Virus record (IMG/VR): IMGVR_UViG_2663762849_000017
DNA from: a virus
Lineage: Duplodnaviria > Heunggongvirae > Uroviricota > Caudoviricetes
Reading direction: 5' to 3' (one strand)
Length of the DNA: 11,721 nt
The number at the start of each line of letters is the position of its first letter. Positions within the stretch are counted from its first letter, which is position 1. The notes beneath the pieces are model-generated. The model ran no database searches, was not told where the DNA came from, and saw only the letters and a program-made list of their open reading frames with translations. The position numbers and the translations under genes are program-made. Positions 1 through 7,936 of the stretch are shown here, in pieces.

Positions 1-1
1 A

Positions 2-142
2 GCCCGTACAGAGATCACTCATTACCGTATGCATGGCGCGGGTAGCGCCAACGATGGCGTCTACCGGACACGCCTGAATACATTTAGTGCAGCCAATACA
101 GTTATTTTCATCAATAACCGCCACCATCCGCGCTGGCGTTAG
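2..142 (+). CDS. Partial ORF (3' end only; 5' end lies outside the window); position is consistent with the end of a late antiterminator (Q-like) gene, but the product is not recognised
   Basis: Open frame from the window edge to TAG at 140-142, immediately upstream of a leader/terminator and a pinholin gene, which matches the lambdoid order Q-pR'-tR'-S-R. The sequence itself was not recognised; the assignment is positional only. Confidence 0.25.
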
Positions 143-179
143 CTCTTGCGCTTCGCCATCCAGCGGCTGCGGCTCGACT

Positions 180-260
180 CATTGGTTATTTGTTGAAGTT
201 TTCTTATGTATTTGTGGTGGTGTTTTGAACACTCGGTGGCATTCTCACAAATATCATTTA
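180..260 (+). promoter_or_regulatory. Candidate late promoter (pR'-like) / leader region upstream of the lysis cassette
   Basis: AT-rich stretch with imperfect sigma70-like hexamers (e.g. TTGAAC at 225-230) about 100 bp upstream of an intrinsic terminator and about 250 bp upstream of the holin start, as in the lambdoid pR'/qut/tR' layout. The hexamers are weak and the exact promoter is not resolved. Confidence 0.25.
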
Positions 261-322
261 GTAGTTTACGTACGTAAAAAATTGGTTATGCTGTTAAGAG
301 TGGTTACTTCGTCACACAGCTT

Positions 323-350
323 AAACCCGCCGTCGAGCGGGTTTTTCCAT
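323..350 (+). terminator. Rho-independent terminator (tR'-like) in the late leader
   Basis: Perfect 8-bp inverted repeat AAACCCGC / GCGGGTTT (323-330 and 337-344) around a 6-nt loop, followed by a T-rich tract TTTTCCATTTTTT. Confidence 0.65.
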
Positions 351-484
351 TTTTTGAGTCTCGATATTAGCTGATAACCCAATACCTGAGTTATTCACTG
401 ACTCCGAATCTGTTACGTTTCTGCCTTTATTGCGATACGTAGTATCCCCTTAATTTACACCCGCTTTGTCTGCGAGGTGGGGTT

Positions 485-700
485 ATGAAATCCATGGATA
501 AGTTAACAACGGGTGTCGCCTATGGCACCTCAGCAGGTAGTGCCGGGTACTGGTTTTTACAGTTGCTCGATAAAGTCACGCCCTCACAGTGGGCGGCAAT
601 AGGTGTGCTGGGTAGTCTGGTATTTGGCTTGCTGACGTATCTGACAAACCTTTATTTCAAGATTAAAGAAGATAAGCGTAAGGCTGCGAGAGGTGAATAA
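485..700 (+). CDS. S: Class II holin (pinholin), phage 21 S21-like, 71 aa
   Basis: ATG at 485 preceded by a GAGGTGGGG Shine-Dalgarno. The N-terminus MKSMDK carries the dual-start motif (Met1/Met4) typical of S21 holin/antiholin. Two hydrophobic helices are followed by a charged C-terminus [13 protein letters not shown]. The protein closely resembles the phage 21 pinholin as I recall it. Its stop overlaps the next ATG (TAATG). Confidence 0.85.
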
Positions 701-3700
701 TGTCGCCATCATTACGCAAGGCTATTGCTGCTATTGGTGGTGGGGCTGTTGCCATAGCGTCTGTGCTCATCACTGGTCCGAGTGGTGACGATGGCCTGGA
801 AGGTGTCAGCTACATACCATACAAAGATATTGTTGGTGTATGGACTGTATGTCACGGGCATACAGGAAAAGACATCATGCTCGGTAAAACGTATAAAGGC
901 AGCAGTAAGGGGCATACCCCGCGCGAAGCGAAGGACAACCTGAAATCCACGCAGTTACTGAGTGTGATCGATGCCATCAGCGAAGGGCCGATTGAAGGTC
1001 CGGTGGATGGGTTAAAAAGCGTGCTACTGAACAGTACGCCGGTGCTGGACACTGAGGGGAATACCAATATCTCCGGTGTCACGGTGGTGTTCCGGGCAGG
1101 TGAGCAGGAGCAGACTCCGCCGGAGGGGTTTGAATCCTCCGGCTCCGAGACGGTGCTGGGTACGGAAGTGAAATACGACACGCCGATCACCCGCACCATC
1201 ACGTCGGCAAACATCGACCGTCTGCGTTTTACCTTCGGTGTGCAGGCACTGGTGGAAACCACTTCAAAGGGTGACCGGAATCCGTCGGAAGTTCGCCTGC
1301 TGGTTCAGATACAGCGTAACGGTGGCTGGGTGACGGAAAAAGACATCACCATTAAGGGCAAAACCACCTCGCAGTATCTGGCCTCGGTGGTGGTGGATAA
1401 CCTGCCTCCGCGCCCGTTCAATATCCGGATGCGCAGGATGACACCGGACAGCACCACAGACCAGCTGCAGAACAAAACGCTCTGGTCGTCATACACCGAA
1501 ATCATCGATATGAAACAGTGCTACCCGAACACGGCACTGGTCGGTGTGCAGGAGGACTCGGAGCAGTTCGGCAGTCAGCAGGTGAGTCGTAATTATCATC
1601 TGCGCGGGCGCATTCTGCAGGTGCCGTCGAACTATAACCCGCAGACGCGACAATACAGCGGTATCTGGGACGGAACGTTAAAACCGGCATACAGCAACAA
1701 CATGGCCTGGTGTCTGTGGGATATGCTGACCCATCCGCGCTACGGCATGGGGAAACGTCTTGGTGCGGCGGATGTGGACAAATGGGCGCTGTATGTCATC
1801 GGCCAGAATTGCGACCAGTCGGTGCCGGATGGTTTTGGTGGCACGGAGCCGCGCATCACCTGTAATGCCTGGCTGACCACACAGCGTAAGGCGTGGGATG
1901 TTCTCAGTGATTTCTGCTCGGCGATGCGCTGTATGCCGGTATGGAACGGGCAGACGCTGACGTTCGTGCAGGACCGGCCGTCGGATAAGGTGTGGACCTA
2001 TAACCGCAGTAATGTGGTGATGCCGGATGATGGCGCGCCGTTCCGCTACAGTTTCAGCGCCCTGAAGGACCGCCATAATGCCGTTGAGGTGAACTGGATT
2101 GACCCGGATAACGGCTGGGAGACGGCGACAGAGCTTGTGGAGGACACGCAGGCCATTGCCCGTTACGGTCGTAACGTCACGAAGATGGATGCCTTTGGCT
2201 GTACCAGTCGGGGGCAGGCACACCGAGCCGGGCTGTGGCTGATTAAAACGGAACTGCTGGAAACGCAGACCGTGGATTTCAGCGTGGGCGCAGAAGGGCT
2301 TCGCCATGTGCCGGGCGATGTTATTGAAATCTGCGATGATGACTATGCGGGTATCAGCATCGGCGGGCGCGTGCTGGCGGTGAACAGCCAGACCCGGACG
2401 CTGACGCTCGACCGTGAAATCACTCTGCCATCCTCCGGTACCACGCTGATAAGCCTGGTTGACGGAAGCGGCAATCCGGTCAGCGTGGAGGTCCAGTCCG
2501 TCACCGACGGCGTGAAGGTAAAAGTGAGCCGGGTTCCTGACGGCGTTGCCGGATACAGCGTGTGGGGGCTGAAGTTGCCGACGTTGCGCCAGCGCCTGTT
2601 CCGCTGCGTGAGTATCCGTGAGAACGATGACGGCACGTATGCCATCACTGCCGTGCAGCATGTACCGGAAAAAGAGGCCATCGTGGATAACGGGGCGCAC
2701 TTTGACGGCGACCAGAGCGGCACGGTGAATGGTGTCACGCCGCCAGCGGTGCAGCACCTGACTGCCGAAGTCACCGCAGACAGCGGGGAATATCAGGTGC
2801 TGGCGCGCTGGGACACGCCGAAGGTGGTGAAGGGGGTGAGCTTTATGCTTCGCCTGACCGTGGCAGCGGATGACGGCAGTGAGCGGCTGGTCAGCACGGC
2901 CCGGACGACGGAAACCACATACCGCTTCACGCAACTGGCGCTGGGGCGGTACACGCTGACAGTCCGGGCGGTAAATGCGTGGGGGCAGCAGGGCGATCCG
3001 GCGTCGGTATCGTTCCGGATTGCCGCACCGGCAGCACCGTCGAGGATTGATCTGACGCCGGGCTATTTTCAGATAACCGCCACGCCGCATCTTGCCGTTT
3101 ATGACCCGACGGTACAGTTTGAATTCTGGTTCTCGGAAAAGCGGATTACCGATATCAGGCAGGTTGAAACCACAGCCCGCTATCTTGGCACGGCGCTGTA
3201 CTGGATAGCTGCCAGTATCAATATTAAGCCGGGCCATGATTATTATTTTTATATCCGCAGTGTGAATACTGTTGGCAAATCGGCATTCGTGGAGGCTGTC
3301 GGTCAGGCGAGCGATGATGCTTCCGGCTATCTGGATTTTTTCAAAGGCCAGATAACTGAATCCCATCTCGGCAAGGAGCTGCTGGAAAAAGTCGAGCTGA
3401 CGGAGGATAACGCCAGCAAACTGGAGGAGTTTTCGAAAGAGTGGAAAGACGCCAACGATAAATGGAATGCCATGTGGGGCGTCAAAATTGAGCAGACCGA
3501 AGACGGCAGGCATTATGTCGCGGGTATTGGCCTCAGCATGGAGGATACGGAGGAAGGCAAACTGAGCCAGTTCCTGGTTGCCGCTAACCGTATCGCGTTT
3601 ATTGACCCGGCAAACGGGAATGAAACGCCGATGTTTGTGGCGCAGGGCAACCAGATATTCATGAACGAAGTGTTCCTGAAGTATCTGACGGCTCCCACCA

Positions 3701-4287
3701 TTACCAGCGGCGGCAATCCGCCGGTATTTTCCCTGACACCGGACGGGCGGTTGACGGCGAAAAATGCCGATATCAGCGGTAACGTGAATGCGAACTCAGG
3801 GACGCTCAATAATGTCACGATTAACCAGAACTGTCGGATTCTGGGAAAACTGTCTGCCAACCAGATTGAAGGTGATATTGTCAAAACGGTGGGAAAAGCC
3901 TTTCCGAGAAATGGCAGTTATGCCAGCGGTACAATAACGGTCACTGTGTACGATGACCAGGCTTTTGACCGTCAGATAGTAATCCCACCCGTTCTGTTTC
4001 GCGGTGGTAAGCATGAAAACTTCAACAGCAACAACCAACAGTCATACTGGTATTCAACCTGTAAGCTGCAGGTACTGAAGAACGGACAGGAAATCTTTCA
4101 GCAACCCGCGACGGATGTCAGCAGGGTATTTTCATCCGTCATTGATATGCCAGCGGGACACGGCCATGTCACCCTGACTTTCAATGTTTCTTCATATGGT
4201 GCAAATAACTGGACGCCAACGACCAGTATCAGCGACCTTCTTGTTGTCGTGATGAAGAAATCAACAGCCGGTATCAGTATCAGTTGA
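700..4287 (+). CDS. J: Chimeric ORF: N-terminal ~65 aa of a SAR endolysin (R21-like lysozyme) fused in frame to a lambda J-like tail-tip host-specificity protein (residues ~66-1195)
   Basis: Residues 1-65 ([65 protein letters not shown]) match the signal-anchor-release domain and start of the catalytic domain of phage 21 endolysin. From [22 protein letters not shown] onward the protein is collinear with lambda gpJ (recalled from memory). There is no ATG at the position of the native J start, so translation depends on the R start. The ORF is uninterrupted over 3.6 kb. The last ~140 aa differ from the lambda J C-terminus and are lower in GC. Confidence 0.85.
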
Positions 4288-4305
4288 ATTTTATAACCCA
4301 AATAC

Positions 4306-4331
4306 GGGCGCCAGAAATGGCGCCTTTTTTA
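4306..4331 (+). terminator. Rho-independent terminator between J and stf
   Basis: GGCGCC (4307-4312), loop AGAAAT, GGCGCC (4319-4324), followed by TTTTTT (4325-4330). Confidence 0.6.
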
Positions 4332-4345
4332 TTTGTGGAGTGAAT

Positions 4346-6406
4346 ATGGCAGTACAGATTTCAGGCGTGCTGAAAGACGGTGCAGGAAAACCAATACAGA
4401 ACTGTACTATTCAGCTCAAAGCAAAGCGTAACAGCACCACGGTACTGGTGAACACGGTGGCCTCTGAAAATCCGGATGAAGCCGGGCGTTACAGCATGGA
4501 TGTTGAGTATGGCCAGTACAGCGTCACCCTGCTGGTTGAAGGTTTTCCGCCTTCACATGCCGGGACCATTACCGTCTATGAAGGTTCCAGACCAGGTACG
4601 CTGAATGATTTTCTCGGTGCCATGACGGAAGATGATGTCATGCCGGAGGCATTGCGTCGTTTTGAGGTAATGGTGGAGGATGTGGCACGCAACGCTGAAG
4701 CCGCCTCTCAGAGCGCAGCGGCAGCAAAGAAATCAGAAACAGCAGCGGCATCGTCCAGGAACGCGGCGAAAACATCAGAGACGAATGCAGGTAACAGCGC
4801 GAAAGCGGCAGCTTCTTCAAAAACAGCCGCACAAAACGCAGCAACAGCGGCAGAACGTTCAGAGACAAATGCCCGTGCGTCAGAAGAAGCCTCCGCAGAC
4901 AGTGAAGAGGCTTCCCGCCGTAATGCAGAGTCAGCCGCTGAAAATGCCGGAGTCGCCACCACAAAAGCGCGGGAGGCTGCAGCAGACGCAACAAAGGCCG
5001 GGCAGAAAAAGGATGAGGCTCTGTCGGCAGCGACACGAGCTGAAAAGGCGGCAGACCGCGCAGAAGCCGCAGCGGAAGTGACTGCAGAGCCCTATGCGAA
5101 TATAGTGCCGCCGCTGCCTGATGTGTGGATACCGTTTAACGATTCACTGGATATGATTGCGGGTTTTTCTCCGGGCTATAAAAAAATAGCTATTGGTGAC
5201 GATGTGGTTCAGGTCGCCAGTGATAAACAGGTTAATTTCAGTCGCGCATCAACGGCAACATATATCAACAAATCTGGCGAACTGAAAACGGCGGAAATTA
5301 ATGAGCCGCGATTTGAGTGTGATGGCCTGCTTATTGAGGGACAAAGAACGAACTACATGCTCAATTCGGAAAGTCCAGCCAGCTGGGGGAAGTCATCAAA
5401 CATGGATGTGCCCGAAACCGGGACGGATAGTTTTGGTTTTACTTATGGAAAGTTTGTCTGCAACGATTCTCTGGTTGGGCAAACTTCGGCTATTAATATG
5501 GCATCAATTGCTGCAACAAAGTCAGTTGATGTCTCAGGCGATAACAAGTACGTGACAACCTCATGCCGTTTTAAAACAGAACGACAGGTAAGGTTACGTA
5601 TACGGTTTGATAAGTATGATGGTAGTGCAACAACTTTTCTTGGCGATGCGTACATTGATACGCAAACGCTTGAAATTAATATGACAGGTGGTGCTGCCGG
5701 CAGAATTACGGCACGAGTCAGGAAGGATAAGACCACGGGCTGGATTTTTGCAGAGGCAACGATTCAGGCAATTGATGGAGAGTTAAAAATAGGCTCTCAG
5801 ATACAGTATTCTCCTGAGCAGGGTGGGGCAACAGTATCTGGTGACTATATTTATCTTGCCACCCCACAAGTAGAGAATGGACCATGTGTATCATCATTTA
5901 TTATTTCAGGAGGCAGCGCAACGACAAGAGCCAGTGATTTGGTTAGTATCCCCACCAGAAATAATCTTTATAAGTTACCATTTACTTTTTTACTTGAGAT
6001 TCATAAAAACTGGGATATTGCACCAAACGCCGCACCCCGCGTGTGGGATATAGCAGCAGCCAATACCGGGCAATCAGCAATTGCAGCAATCAACAGAGGT
6101 AGTGGTAAGTTATATATGAGTCTGTCAAACCCTTCAGGCTCGTATGTTAATAGCGCAGCGACAGATGTATTTGCAGAGAAAACCACATTTGGATGTATTG
6201 CAAAAGCTGATGGTCACTTTCATGTGGTGACAAATGGTAAAGCGGTTAATGAAGTTTATTGTGAATATAATGGCGTGACCGCTGATAAAAATATCCGATT
6301 TGGAGGGCAGACGAATACTGGAGAACGACATCTGTTTGGCCATATTCGCAATTTCCGCATATGGCATAAAGAATTAAATGACAGGCAATTAAAAGAGGTC
6401 GTATGA
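4346..6406 (+). CDS. stf: Side tail fibre protein (lambda Stf-like N-terminus, Ala/Ser-rich shaft, divergent lectin-like C-terminal domain)
   Basis: The N-terminus MAVQISGVLKDGAGKPIQNCTIQLKAKRNSTTV...GRYSMDVEYGQYSVTLLVEGFPPSHAGTITVYE matches the lambda Stf N-terminal domain as I recall it. It is followed by an Ala/Ser/Glu-rich repetitive shaft. The C-terminal ~430 aa are encoded by lower-GC DNA and end in NFRIWHKELNDRQLKEV, a motif typical of concanavalin-A-like/LamG jelly-roll domains. I place the start at ATG 4346 with GGAG 6 nt upstream; the ORF track starts at GTG 4340. Confidence 0.8.
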   Translation: MAVQISGVLKDGAGKPIQNCTIQLKAKRNSTTVLVNTVASENPDEAGRYSMDVEYGQYSVTLLVEGFPPSHAGTITVYEGSRPGTLNDFLGAMTEDDVMPEALRRFEVMVEDVARNAEAASQSAAAAKKSETAAASSRNAAKTSETNAGNSAKAAASSKTAAQNAATAAERSETNARASEEASADSEEASRRNAESAAENAGVATTKAREAAADATKAGQKKDEALSAATRAEKAADRAEAAAEVTAEPYANIVPPLPDVWIPFNDSLDMIAGFSPGYKKIAIGDDVVQVASDKQVNFSRASTATYINKSGELKTAEINEPRFECDGLLIEGQRTNYMLNSESPASWGKSSNMDVPETGTDSFGFTYGKFVCNDSLVGQTSAINMASIAATKSVDVSGDNKYVTTSCRFKTERQVRLRIRFDKYDGSATTFLGDAYIDTQTLEINMTGGAAGRITARVRKDKTTGWIFAEATIQAIDGELKIGSQIQYSPEQGGATVSGDYIYLATPQVENGPCVSSFIISGGSATTRASDLVSIPTRNNLYKLPFTFLLEIHKNWDIAPNAAPRVWDIAAANTGQSAIAAINRGSGKLYMSLSNPSGSYVNSAATDVFAEKTTFGCIAKADGHFHVVTNGKAVNEVYCEYNGVTADKNIRFGGQTNTGERHLFGHIRNFRIWHKELNDRQLKEVV
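4680..5090 (+). repeat. Ala/Ser/Glu-rich low-complexity repeat region inside stf (fibre shaft)
   Basis: Reiterated motifs such as AAxxSETNA / AASS / AAENA in the translation. The GC-rich repetitive codons produce spurious ORFs in other frames and on the opposite strand. Confidence 0.6.
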
Positions 6407-6681
6407 AAGATTTAACTTTGAAGTTTCATGACAAACTGCAGTTTAAGGCCTTCCTGTCATCTCTTGGCTGGGCGGAAGATGAAGACCTCCAGAATAAACT
6501 GTTAGTTGATGAAATTGGTTTCACCTACACAGAAACAGGGGTAACAGAAGAGGGAGAACCTGTCTGTATCCGGAATGATGGTTATTTTGTCAACATTCGC
6601 ATTCTTGATGACTTGTTTGATGTTTCTGTATTCTCTGATTATGTCGTGGAGCTGGAAACACCGCTTCGGGAATGGAGCTGA
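6403..6681 (+). CDS. Hypothetical acidic 92-aa protein, translationally coupled to stf; possible tail-fibre accessory/chaperone by position only
   Basis: ATG at 6403 overlaps the stf stop (ATGA), with AAAAGAGG 4 nt upstream. The product is acidic and has no hydrophobic segment. It does not resemble the lambda Tfa N-terminus and its family was not recognised. Confidence 0.5.
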   Translation: MKDLTLKFHDKLQFKAFLSSLGWAEDEDLQNKLLVDEIGFTYTETGVTEEGEPVCIRNDGYFVNIRILDDLFDVSVFSDYVVELETPLREWS

Positions 6682-6693
6682 AAGGAGGAAATA

Positions 6694-7134
6694 ATGGATA
6701 TAAGCCCCTTACTTCATGCACTTTGTGCTGTGGCTGCGCAGATACTGGTTGGTCTTTTTACCGGAAACTGGGCTTACGGAGCGATAGCCGGTTGTACGTT
6801 CTTCATTGCGCGTGAACATACCCAGGCAGAATATCGCTGGATTGAAATGTTCGGGCATGGCAAGCGAATGAATATGCCGTGGTGGGGCGGTTTTGATCCG
6901 CGTGCTTGGGATGTGGCAAGCCTGATGGATTTTGCTGTGCCGGTGGTGGCGTGTCTGCTGGTCTGGCTGTTGGTTAATCGTGGGCGAAAAAAGGTGAGCT
7001 GTATATGCAACGGAGGAAGAAACCCCGTTGCTGGAAGCCAGGAAAAAGTATCGGGTGTTGCTGTCCTCGGATGTTGTGCTAATTGGGTGATAACAGATCC
7101 TGTGTATGGGAGTTTCCCTTTTTGCGTGCGTTGA
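6694..7134 (+). CDS. Hypothetical small integral membrane protein (about 3 predicted TM helices), 146 aa; C-terminal extent uncertain
   Basis: Strong Shine-Dalgarno AAGGAGG 5 nt before ATG 6694, 12 nt after the previous stop. Hydrophobic segments are LLHALCAVAAQILVGLFTG, AYGAIAGCTFFIA and VASLMDFAVPVVACLLVWLLV, followed by RGRKK. The last ~18 codons overlap the convergent sitD 3' end, so the true C-terminus is uncertain. Confidence 0.5.
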   Translation: MDISPLLHALCAVAAQILVGLFTGNWAYGAIAGCTFFIAREHTQAEYRWIEMFGHGKRMNMPWWGGFDPRAWDVASLMDFAVPVVACLLVWLLVNRGRKKVSCICNGGRNPVAGSQEKVSGVAVLGCCANWVITDPVYGSFPFCVR

Positions 7135-7936
7135 TGCTGGTAACGGCAAACGTCATGATGAACAAAACCGCGAATAAGACGACAATCGTCGGAGCTGGTG
7201 CGCTGTCGATAAAAAAGGACAACCAGACACCAGTCATTGACACTATTACCGATATGCCAGTCGCCAGTAGGAGCGCAATATGAAAGCGTTGTGTCAGGAG
7301 TACCGCAATGGCGCCAGGCGCAATGAGCAGAGAAATGGAGAGAATGATACCTACCGCTTTCAGCGTCGCCACAATGGTCAGAGAGACCATGCACAGCAGC
7401 CCATAATGCAGCCATCTCGTATGCAAACCGCTTACCTGCGCCTGTTGATAATCAAAGCTGAACAGCAAAAAATCCCGCCATTTTACGCTAATAACAAGTG
7501 TAACCAGCCCGGCAATAATCATCGTCTGGATTATATCGCCGATGGTTATCCCGAGCATGTCGCCGAAAAGAATATGGTCAAGATGTACGTCTGGTTTGAC
7601 TGCAATATACAAGATCAGACCTGCGGCAAACATGCCAGAAAAAACAATCCCCATCACTGTATCTTGCTTGATTCGGCTGTTGTCTTTCAGGTATCCCGTC
7701 GCCACCGCGCAGAATACTCCGGCGACGAATGCCCCTGTAGCCAAAGGTAACCCCAGAATCCAGGCAAGCACGATGCCAGGAAAAACCGCATGACTCATCG
7801 CGTCACCCATCAGTGCCCAACCTTTCAGGACCAGAAAGACTGACAGCAGCGCACAGGGTATGGAAACTACCAGTGAAATCAGCAGTGCGTGACTCATAAA
7901 GGTGAACTGCAGTGGCTCCAGTAATAATGCCATCAT
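7079..7936 (-). CDS. sitD: Mn/Fe ABC transporter permease SitD
   Basis: 285-aa polytopic membrane protein, last gene of a four-gene operon (binding protein, ATPase, two permeases). Its start overlaps the sitC stop by 4 bp. Confidence 0.85.
   Translation of the reverse strand: MMALLLEPLQFTFMSHALLISLVVSIPCALLSVFLVLKGWALMGDAMSHAVFPGIVLAWILGLPLATGAFVAGVFCAVATGYLKDNSRIKQDTVMGIVFSGMFAAGLILYIAVKPDVHLDHILFGDMLGITIGDIIQTMIIAGLVTLVISVKWRDFLLFSFDYQQAQVSGLHTRWLHYGLLCMVSLTIVATLKAVGIILSISLLIAPGAIAVLLTQRFHIALLLATGISVIVSMTGVWLSFFIDSAPAPTIVVLFAVLFIMTFAVTSINARKKGNSHTQDLLSPN

Follow-up and report, generated by a model that had tools for sequence, protein, structure and literature searches.

At this locus a 3.6-kb open reading frame begins as a phage lysis gene and ends as a phage tail gene, which raises the question of whether it is the scar of a deletion or a gene held open by selection. 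The initial annotation, made on the window (the whole stretch of DNA analyzed, 11,721 nt), had read the intact frame as either very recently formed or under selection for its product. Our analysis favors the scar: with a probability of roughly 0.86, the ORF represents a fusion pseudogene that arose through one illegitimate deletion in a sitABCD-carrying lambdoid prophage at icd, a case of ordinary prophage decay. We infer that the hybrid protein is scarcely produced and serves no function. The features of the window are collected in Table 1.

Table 1. Features of the window, with their positions, strand and supporting evidence.
Feature	Position	Strand	Evidence and remarks
rsxB (core gene), interior fragment	1..178	-	100% identity to rsxB of complete genomes; blunt-joined to prophage at 178/179
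Putative terminator-like hairpin, ~140 nt upstream of essD	323..344	+	Consensus scan only
essD, S21-type pinholin, 71 aa, intact	485..700	+	Pfam Phage_holin_2_1 E = 2e-35; WP_000839596.1 in all carriers examined
Endolysin gene 5' fragment (phage 21 R / rrrD-type), codons 1-65	700..894	+	3HDE/4ZPU alignment, Pfam; ~100 lysozyme-fold residues absent
Deletion junction	894..895		2-bp 'TA' common to both parental sequences; BLAST segments overlap by 2 nt; three-way breakpoint alignment
Lambda-type J (tip attachment/host specificity), codon 3 to stop, 1130 codons	895..4287	+	8IYK, Pfam, NCBIfam
IS4 insertion site in three other carriers, empty in window	3414..3426		Carrier genomes; 13-bp target duplication
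Putative terminator-like GC-rich hairpin and T run, just 3' of fusion ORF	4306..4325	+	Consensus scan
Side tail fibre-like gene, 688 aa, spared by deletion	4340..6406	+	Pfam phage_tail_N E = 5e-67; NCBIfam spike fibre domain
sitDCBA iron/manganese ABC transporter, prophage cargo	7079..10528	-	ORFs; RefSeq annotation of identical loci
Duplicated icd 3' fragment, right attachment-site end of prophage	11456..11608	+	ORF; partial isocitrate dehydrogenase in carriers and undeleted relatives

The ORF Joins the Start of a SAR Endolysin to an Almost Complete J Protein

The ORF list of the window gives the frame as 700..4287 on the + strand (1195 aa). Its residues 1-65 aligned with residues 1-66 of the phage 21 lysozyme (PDB 3HDE) and of K-12 RrrD (4ZPU) at E ~1e-36, and its residues 66-1194 with residues 3-1131 of lambda J (PDB 8IYK; 2296 bits). 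The fusion therefore consists of a SAR endolysin N-terminus of the phage 21/RrrD type and residues 3-1132 of a lambda-type J tail-tip protein, as the initial annotation had proposed, and the measured lengths of 65 endolysin and 1130 J codons agree with its estimates.

SAR endolysins are defined by a basic N-terminus and a weakly hydrophobic, Gly/Ala-rich transmembrane helix of ~20 residues (PMC9239132). Both features are found here, as basic R6 and K7 are followed by a weakly hydrophobic Gly/Ala-rich helix at residues 8-26 (mean Kyte-Doolittle 2.0); no other 19-mer in the whole fusion protein is more hydrophobic. The lysozyme motif E-X8-D-X5-T is also present, starting at E34. The T4-lysozyme-like catalytic domain is incomplete: the alignment to 3HDE ends at residue 66-68 of 165, and Pfam Phage_lysozyme is matched at no more than positions 3-45 of its 125. 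Compared with R21 of phage 21 and RrrD of K-12 DLP12 (PDB 3HDE, 3HDF, 4ZPU), residues 1-65 are almost identical, including the basic residues, the SAR helix and the motif, and the reading frame likewise follows an S21-type pinholin gene whose stop overlaps its start (TAATG). In contrast to these endolysins, the fusion keeps only ~40% of the protein and its locus has no downstream spanin genes, while the window allele has one Ala fewer in the SAR helix than 3HDE and 4ZPU. As residues 67-165 of the lysozyme fold have been replaced by J, a working muramidase cannot form.

The J part matched lambda gpJ (8IYK) end to end, fusion residues 66-1195 corresponding to J residues 3-1132. All six J Pfam modules were found (FNIII-A_GpJ, Phage-tail_3, Ig_J, Ig_J_second, Phage_Tail_Tip and Ig_GpJ_C), and the NCBIfam model NF049904 (lambda_TipJ) scored 2327 bits, above its cut-off of 1950, with a match to profile positions 3-1163, as for a full-length J. 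The last ~150 residues, which form the receptor-binding domain, diverge from lambda and are better matched by PDB 9WCA ('A8 gpJ'). Unlike in lambda gpJ, Met1-Gly2 give way to 65 residues of the endolysin, with a membrane helix among them. J has here neither a start codon of its own nor its tail-gene context (H, M, L, K, I), and no gene for a partner tail protein lies at the locus. The Shine-Dalgarno sequence, start codon and essD overlap of the fusion ORF are all intact, so any essD transcript could be translated into the fusion.

A Single 17-kb Deletion Probably Accounts for the Junction

Endolysin-derived DNA extends to window position 895 and J-derived DNA starts at 894 (lambda 15510), so codon 65 (Y) is the last endolysin codon and codon 66 is Lys3 of J; J therefore resumes at its third codon, and not at the fourth as first described. 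The window is 98.9% identical to the essD-rrrD region of SE15 up to position 895. SE15 and S22EC are undeleted relatives, with the same icd site and flanking genes and with the full block between rrrD and J; relative to both, the window has lost the first two codons of J and all sequence from rrrD codon 66 as far as gene I. Measured in SE15, whose sit-carrying prophage at icd is undeleted, the missing block is 17,255 bp, within the 15-20 kb first estimated, and contains the remainder of the endolysin, the spanins, the terminase, the head genes and the tail genes through I.

Inspection for microhomology, which had been advised, found the 2 bp listed in Table 1. The single internal deletion proposed in the initial annotation is supported. 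Sharing these 2 bp at its ends, it joined SAR endolysin codon 65 to J codon 3 and, on the SE15 and S22EC comparison, took the catalytic body of the endolysin, Rz/Rz1, cos, the terminase, all head genes and the tail genes as far as I. That the two genes met in frame is put down to chance, the prior for this outcome being 1 in 3, and the long open frame is simply the J gene, intact when the deletion occurred. Having lost its lysis and morphogenesis genes, the prophage is unable to lyse the cell or to produce particles, and its cargo (sit and an inverse autotransporter) is thereby fixed in the chromosome.

A 55-nt probe spanning the R/J junction was matched by 80 records, from 79 of the 5426 complete E. 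coli genomes, among which the ST1193 clone is the main carrier; an O170:H18 strain and Australian wildlife isolates have the junction as well. The idea of a very recent deletion is thus only roughly right, as all of these share the junction. Flanking gene order was consistent across the carriers examined. For the public distribution of the protein we relied on an exact-sequence look-up, which placed the exact 1196-aa fusion on at least 1000 public contigs and the 1195-aa allele of the window on 5. A protein search with 130 junction residues listed short fragments only and no full-length fusion, and a literature search for a description of the R/J junction found none.

A separate deletion, joining R to a tail-fibre gene, was seen in a remnant at the bio locus, where the break lies 1-2 nt from that of the R/J junction, at a GTATAC palindrome. 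Public data contain over 50 further truncated or fused forms of the same endolysin. We considered a deletion hotspot at the palindrome and rejected it as unproven, since the truncation points of these forms span residues 64-137.

The Fusion Lies in a Decaying Lambdoid Prophage

That the element is a prophage at icd, as first supposed, is supported by the icd' fragment at its right end and by the undeleted relatives at the same site. This fragment, the lost morphogenesis and lysis genes and the IS and frameshift decay seen in carriers are the marks of a defective (cryptic) prophage; in the carriers int and O are frameshifted, and IS30, IS3 and ISEc21 stand in place of the early region. The order J-fibre-sitD was found in 446 genomes. 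An Rfam search of the window gave no match.

Upstream of essD, the window departs from its relatives. The rsxB fragment takes the place of the quuD-nmpC (Q/nmpC) region that all complete-genome carriers have there, window 1-720 is not covered to 80% or more by any complete genome, and the rsxB/prophage junction has 0-1 bp of microhomology. Its reciprocal junction is predicted to read ...GGAAATTAT on the nmpC side, joined to ATTAAGCAACTCGGC... of rsxB. The rsxB join itself is unexplained, and it cuts the lysis genes of the window contig off from the Q antiterminator; the fusion would otherwise presumably be under late-promoter control. From the annotation of the carriers, we take their module ybcN-ninE-ybcO-rusA-ylcG-quuD-nmpC-essD to be the same as that of K-12 DLP12.

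In its integration at icd the element resembles e14 and phage 21. As a deletion- and IS-riddled lambdoid remnant that retains cargo, it also resembles the cryptic prophages DLP12, Rac, Qin and e14 and the 'PAI sit' island, in which many rearrangements, deletions and IS elements have been described (PMC7545054). It differs from them in that one deletion has joined two genes in frame, leaving a long annotated CDS and no obvious fragment.

Variation Among Carriers Points to Decay and Imported J Alleles

Among the matches listed, the fusion frame was open in 56 of 60 carriers. An IS4 element lies in the ORF at one and the same site in three genomes (FDAARGOS_536, 21AR0173 and AREA_492), this disrupted form coming from isolates of the USA and New Zealand. 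The O170:H18 strain has a nonsense codon (Y392*), and rare frameshifted protein forms exist (P0001-P0003). Changes that had arisen in place comprised 0 synonymous, 2 missense (V286E, R505W), 1 nonsense (Y392*) and 1 codon loss, with the IS4 insertion counted as one further event inherited by the three genomes. Nonsense changes make up 3.3% of the possible substitutions in the ORF. By our own calculation, a dN/dS of 0.1 would give three non-silent changes out of three with a probability of ~0.014. The deficit of non-synonymous or disrupting changes that purifying selection would leave was therefore not seen, although the sample is small and the result indicative rather than conclusive. Codon 392 is TGG in the window, TAG in O170:H18 and TAC in lambda; its reading as a stop reverted under selection was rejected, because an intact full-length J (P0131) also has W.

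Two J haplotypes stand behind the one junction. They are 3.2% apart, mostly at synonymous sites, whereas the flanks are 0.2-0.3% apart: in the same genomes 116 of 3591 sites differed in the J tract, compared with 19 of 8786 in the left flank and ~11 of 6800 in the right. Across carriers, the opening 260 nt of the ORF were near-identical, as were both flanks, and for each variable J-tract site the state was already present in just three intact J genes. As the divergence is confined to J, it was brought in by recombination. At the level of sequence, this shows exchange of the J tract at the remnant, and the synonymous-rich 3.2% divergence is accordingly best described as imported variation, with no purifying selection on the fusion apparent. 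An I-J chimeric probe for an undeleted ancestor with the ST1193-type J haplotype found a best undeleted match of 97.0% identity, so the donor or ancestor is absent from the complete genomes.

Within the ST1193-type haplotype, ORF differences amount to at most one SNP and one codon indel, so few that there has been too little time for decay to be expected. Between the window and ST1193 alleles dN/dS is not calculable, as they differ by 1 SNP and one codon. Against FDAARGOS_1252 the window has 1 SNP in the ORF and ~13 in the sit region, a contrast that could be read as conservation of the ORF but is explained equally well by recombination in sit. The frame is still open because J was intact at the deletion, the carrier lineages are young and nearly clonal, and the J body is occasionally overwritten by other J alleles. 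The IS4 insertion, Y392* and the frameshifted forms show that decay has nevertheless begun.

Alternative Explanations

The window is the entire 11.7-kb contig of a draft assembly with an unexplained rsxB join at its other end, and an artefact of short-read assembly or chimeric reads at the R/J junction had to be considered. The same junction, however, occurs in the 79 complete genomes from many laboratories and on the at least 1000 contigs, with consistent flanking gene order. The artefact thus has next to no chance of being the explanation and is already refuted for the R/J junction. It is also very unlikely that the junction arose more than once, or by recombination between two prophages, although this would explain the two J haplotypes 3.2% apart, and the bio-locus deletion does break close by. 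A second, independent event that broke at precisely these two nucleotides on either side is hardly to be expected when only 2 bp are shared. Moreover, the start of the ORF and the flanks are near-identical in all carriers, gene order to the left and right follows that of single undeleted prophages at icd, and one near-coincidence is unremarkable given the spread of endolysin truncation points.

Domestication would make the fusion a gene translated with essD, its SAR helix in the inner membrane and its J-like fibre in the periplasm, with the frame kept by selection; it might then exclude incoming lambdoid phages or serve an envelope function. The intact translation signals and essD overlap, the preserved SAR features and lysozyme motif, the frame open in most carriers and the mostly synonymous haplotype differences are all consistent with this, yet we give it little credence. 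The synonymous differences are J-confined, exceed the flanks more than 10-fold and match states of intact J genes, so they read as a recombination tract. None of the changes that arose in place is silent, which is improbable at a dN/dS of 0.1. The J part is disrupted in other carriers by IS4 (in three genomes), Y392* and frameshifts, which matches the refuting observation named in the initial annotation and leaves unsupported its suggestion that an intact ORF reflects selection for the protein. The genes for I, K, L, M and H, with which J assembles in the tail, are all gone, and the receptor face to which lambda J binds is the outer one, out of periplasmic reach. In addition, IS elements have replaced the Q-driving early region in carriers, and the window contig has no Q upstream. 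As a long shot, the hybrid could be made at a low level with the pinholin, and an inner-membrane-tethered J trimer or J fragment could benefit ST1193-type E. coli, for example by interfering with incoming lambdoid phages or with porin/receptor biogenesis; separately, the remnant could act as donor and acceptor of J alleles that reshuffles lambdoid host range.

Implications

The RefSeq entries for the ORF, named 'phage attachment tail tip protein J' (gpJ; WP_001556898.1, WP_044694526.1 and WP_373385819.1), are chimeras whose first 65 residues derive from an endolysin. Where the fusion locus is interrupted, it is annotated as a pair of pseudogenes. The locus also illustrates that, where recombination has imported the divergence, a frame that is long and open and differs mainly at synonymous sites can be mistaken for one under selection. 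The R/J junction is a clean single-event marker of the sit island variant that the pandemic ST1193 clone shares with a few other lineages, in which one deletion put an end to lysis as well as to particle formation and thereby locked the sit iron/manganese transporter into the chromosome.

Structure of the endolysin-J fusion

The window is the entire draft contig CCBY01000134.1 (assembly GCA_000936105.1). Alignment placed residues 1–65 of the fusion ORF near-perfectly on residues 1–66 of the phage 21 endolysin (PDB 3HDE) and K-12 RrrD (4ZPU), the SAR helix having one alanine fewer, and paired residues 66–1194 with lambda J residues 3–1131 (PDB 8IYK). The endolysin piece keeps two basic residues, a 19-residue Ala/Gly-rich helix and the E-X8-D-X5-T motif, which are recognition features of SAR endolysins (PMC9239132). 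It lacks around 100 residues of the catalytic fold; Pfam detected only profile positions 3–45 of 125 of the lysozyme domain, and all six J modules. RefSeq labels the whole ORF gpJ because its NCBIfam lambda_TipJ score (2327 bits) lies above the cut-off (1950). By sequence, the N-terminal part belongs to the R21/RrrD family and the J part to the lambda TipJ family, but the ORF appears to be a functional member of neither: its lysozyme domain is only partial, and J has lost its start codon and its setting among tail genes.

Features of the window, with nucleotide positions
Feature	Position	Strand	Remarks
rsxB, interior fragment	1–178	-	core gene; joined to prophage DNA at 178/179
Terminator-like hairpin	323–344		simple consensus scan
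essD	485..700		intact S21-type pinholin gene 5' of the fusion ORF; stop codon overlaps the fusion ATG
Fusion ORF	700..4287	+	open over 1195 codons
Recombined tract	~960–4790		J body and ~500 nt 3'
IS4 insertion in other carriers	3414–3426		13-bp duplication
Tail fibre gene to sitD	6403–7134		two small ORFs
sitA to icd' fragment	10530–11450		~0.9 kb, unannotated in RefSeq carriers
79-aa ORF	10722..10961		within the sitA-icd' stretch

Endolysin-derived DNA runs up to window position 895 and J-derived DNA from 894 (lambda 15510). A three-way comparison with strain SE15, which carries the same prophage undeleted at icd, showed only the dinucleotide TA as breakpoint overlap. In SE15 the genes run essD, rrrD, spanin, terminase, portal, head, tail, I, J, tail fibre, sitDCBA and icd', and in its coordinates the missing block measures 17,255 bp. 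A second undeleted strain, S22EC, has broadly the same layout but a different lysis module. These comparisons bear out the anatomy proposed in the initial annotation, a SAR-endolysin start fused to J with the block between them deleted; its placement of the join at about nt 895–900, with J entering at the fourth codon, is corrected to 894/895 and the third codon.

The 92-aa and 146-aa ORFs in the interval from the tail fibre gene to sitD both lacked a family match; the former (WP_000654168.1) is conserved in every sit prophage examined, and some carriers have the latter annotated in truncated form. The 79-aa ORF had no match in Pfam or NCBIfam and is possibly a gene fragment.

Distribution of the junction

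A 55-nt probe spanning the breakpoint, which matches only true carriers, returned 80 records, from 79 of 5426 complete E. coli genomes, every match being 100% identical. The exact 1196-aa fusion protein occurs in at least 1000 public contigs, and the 1195-aa allele of the window (WP_044694526.1) in five. An assembly artefact, which the initial annotation had asked to be excluded, is ruled out for this junction by these complete genomes and contigs. ST1193 strains account for many of the carriers: one record has ST1193 in its name, and MS10858 and the other Australian MS strains are described as ST1193 (PMC11488385). An O170:H18 strain and Australian wildlife isolates also carry the junction. 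In strain 23AR0151 the whole region is present twice. The second copy lies on a 195-kb record labelled plasmid (L017, NZ_CP195449.1, 41866–69920) and spans the IS cluster, the fusion ORF, sitDCBA, icd' and then chromosomal ymgL, ycgX, bluR and bluF; either chromosomal DNA captured in F-prime-like fashion or an error of assembly could account for it. The fusion is also present on a 237-kb record of strain MY504.

Truncated or fused forms of the same endolysin are common: one database search yielded over 50 different break points, spread across residues 64 to 137. A separate endolysin::tail-fibre fusion lies in a lambdoid remnant by bioA-bioD, in the lambda attachment region (L018, 7001–7471, CP027591.1), where the same pinholin precedes endolysin residues 1–67, which continue into the leader and N-terminus of a tail-fibre gene. 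The endolysin sequence there breaks 1–2 nt from the breakpoint in the window, within the palindrome GTATAC, which is probably coincidence because truncation points are so many.

The rsxB join at the left contig end is blunt (0–1 bp overlap), 306 nt 5' of essD, and replaces all prophage DNA upstream of position 179 (nmpC, quuD). It was found in none of the 5426 complete genomes; the contig carrying it is reported for three samples. The arrangement is consistent with an inversion of ~0.5 Mb whose ends fall in rsxB and in the nmpC-essD spacer; such an event would disrupt rsxB. The alternative is a contig-end artefact.

Expression and selection

The ribosome-binding site and start codon of the fusion ORF are intact, so any essD transcript could yield the protein. 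Transcription is nevertheless doubtful, because complete-genome carriers have IS30, IS3 and ISEc21 in place of the prophage early region, with int and O frameshifted, and the normal cascade activating Q is presumably gone. A simple scan picked up the terminator-like hairpin at 323–344 and no promoter-like site 5' of essD, which is weak evidence. Any protein made would be without the lysozyme body and all J assembly partners.

The initial annotation had taken the intact ORF as a sign of either a very recent deletion or selection for the product. Within the common haplotype the fusion ORFs hardly differ: relative to the ST1193 allele, the window has lost one GCT codon from the SAR helix and carries a single missense change, V286E, and isolate AF16 differs by R505W. 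With only 3.3% of possible substitutions creating a stop, and divergence so low, an intact frame is the neutral prediction. The evidence points the opposite way from selection. IS4 interrupts the ORF in FDAARGOS_536, 21AR0173 and AREA_492, codon 392 is TAG in the O170:H18 strain, and PGAP calls a pseudogene in 4 of 60 listed carriers; three frameshifted protein forms in databases may be sequencing errors. A reverted stop at codon 392 need not be invoked, as tryptophan also stands there in an intact full-length J. The in-place changes include no synonymous one: two are missense, one is nonsense and one is the loss of a codon. From site counts in this very small sample, three of three non-silent changes would have a probability of ~0.014 at dN/dS = 0.1 versus ~0.44 under neutrality.

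Divergence between the two J haplotypes could be read differently. O170:H18 and bat-isolate carriers share the ST1193 junction, and their J part differs at 116–117 of 3591 positions (3.2%), about three quarters synonymously, which at face value would suggest that the fusion has long been under purifying selection. In the same genomes, the 9-kb left flank differs at 19/8786 to 30/9143 positions and the 7-kb right flank at ~11 to 41 (first 500 nt after J set aside), a flank divergence of 0.2–0.3%. Since divergence in the tract (11830–15920 in loci L011 and L012) exceeds that of its flanks more than tenfold, and all 117 variable sites have at least one state already in the intact J genes of lambda, SE15 and S22EC (both states at 60), the divergence is standing variation of functional J genes, imported by recombination after the deletion. 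Identical junctions beside such unequal divergence indicate that another J allele has overwritten the J body although the prophage is dead; alternatively, the junction itself was transferred onto a different J background, which would be recombination as well. Every undeleted I-J pair among the complete genomes is at most 97% identical to the ST1193-type J haplotype, whose source is therefore unsampled. Compared with FDAARGOS_1252 and MCJCHV-1 (L001/L005; window 7613–10626), the window carries ~13 SNPs across the sit operon and 19 at the icd' end, and only one in the 3.6-kb fusion ORF. So uneven a spread suggests that the sit/icd' section of the island has recombined in this isolate.

Origin of the hybrid

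The insertions, the nonsense codon, the non-silent changes and the imported J divergence speak against the selective reading. The structural part of the earlier interpretation is supported by the alignments and undeleted relatives, and its functional speculation is not supported; it is very improbable that a membrane-tethered J is expressed and plays a role. We consider it likely (probability about 0.86) that the hybrid is an accidental in-frame scar of one illegitimate deletion in a sit-carrying lambdoid prophage. Such a deletion would have stripped the lysis and morphogenesis functions, leaving a harmless remnant with its cargo kept in the chromosome. The scar would persist because carrier lineages are young and because recombination now and then renews its J tract; some lineages are already losing it.

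The whole element is typical of cryptic lambdoid prophages. Its ybcN-to-essD module is of the DLP12 type, and it sits at icd, where e14 and phage 21 also integrate. The prophage corresponds to the 'PAI sit' island, described as highly rearranged (PMC7545054). We found no published description of the R/J junction in the literature. The fusion is a fresh example of a well-known process and not biologically surprising; it is useful as an annotation correction and as a lineage marker.
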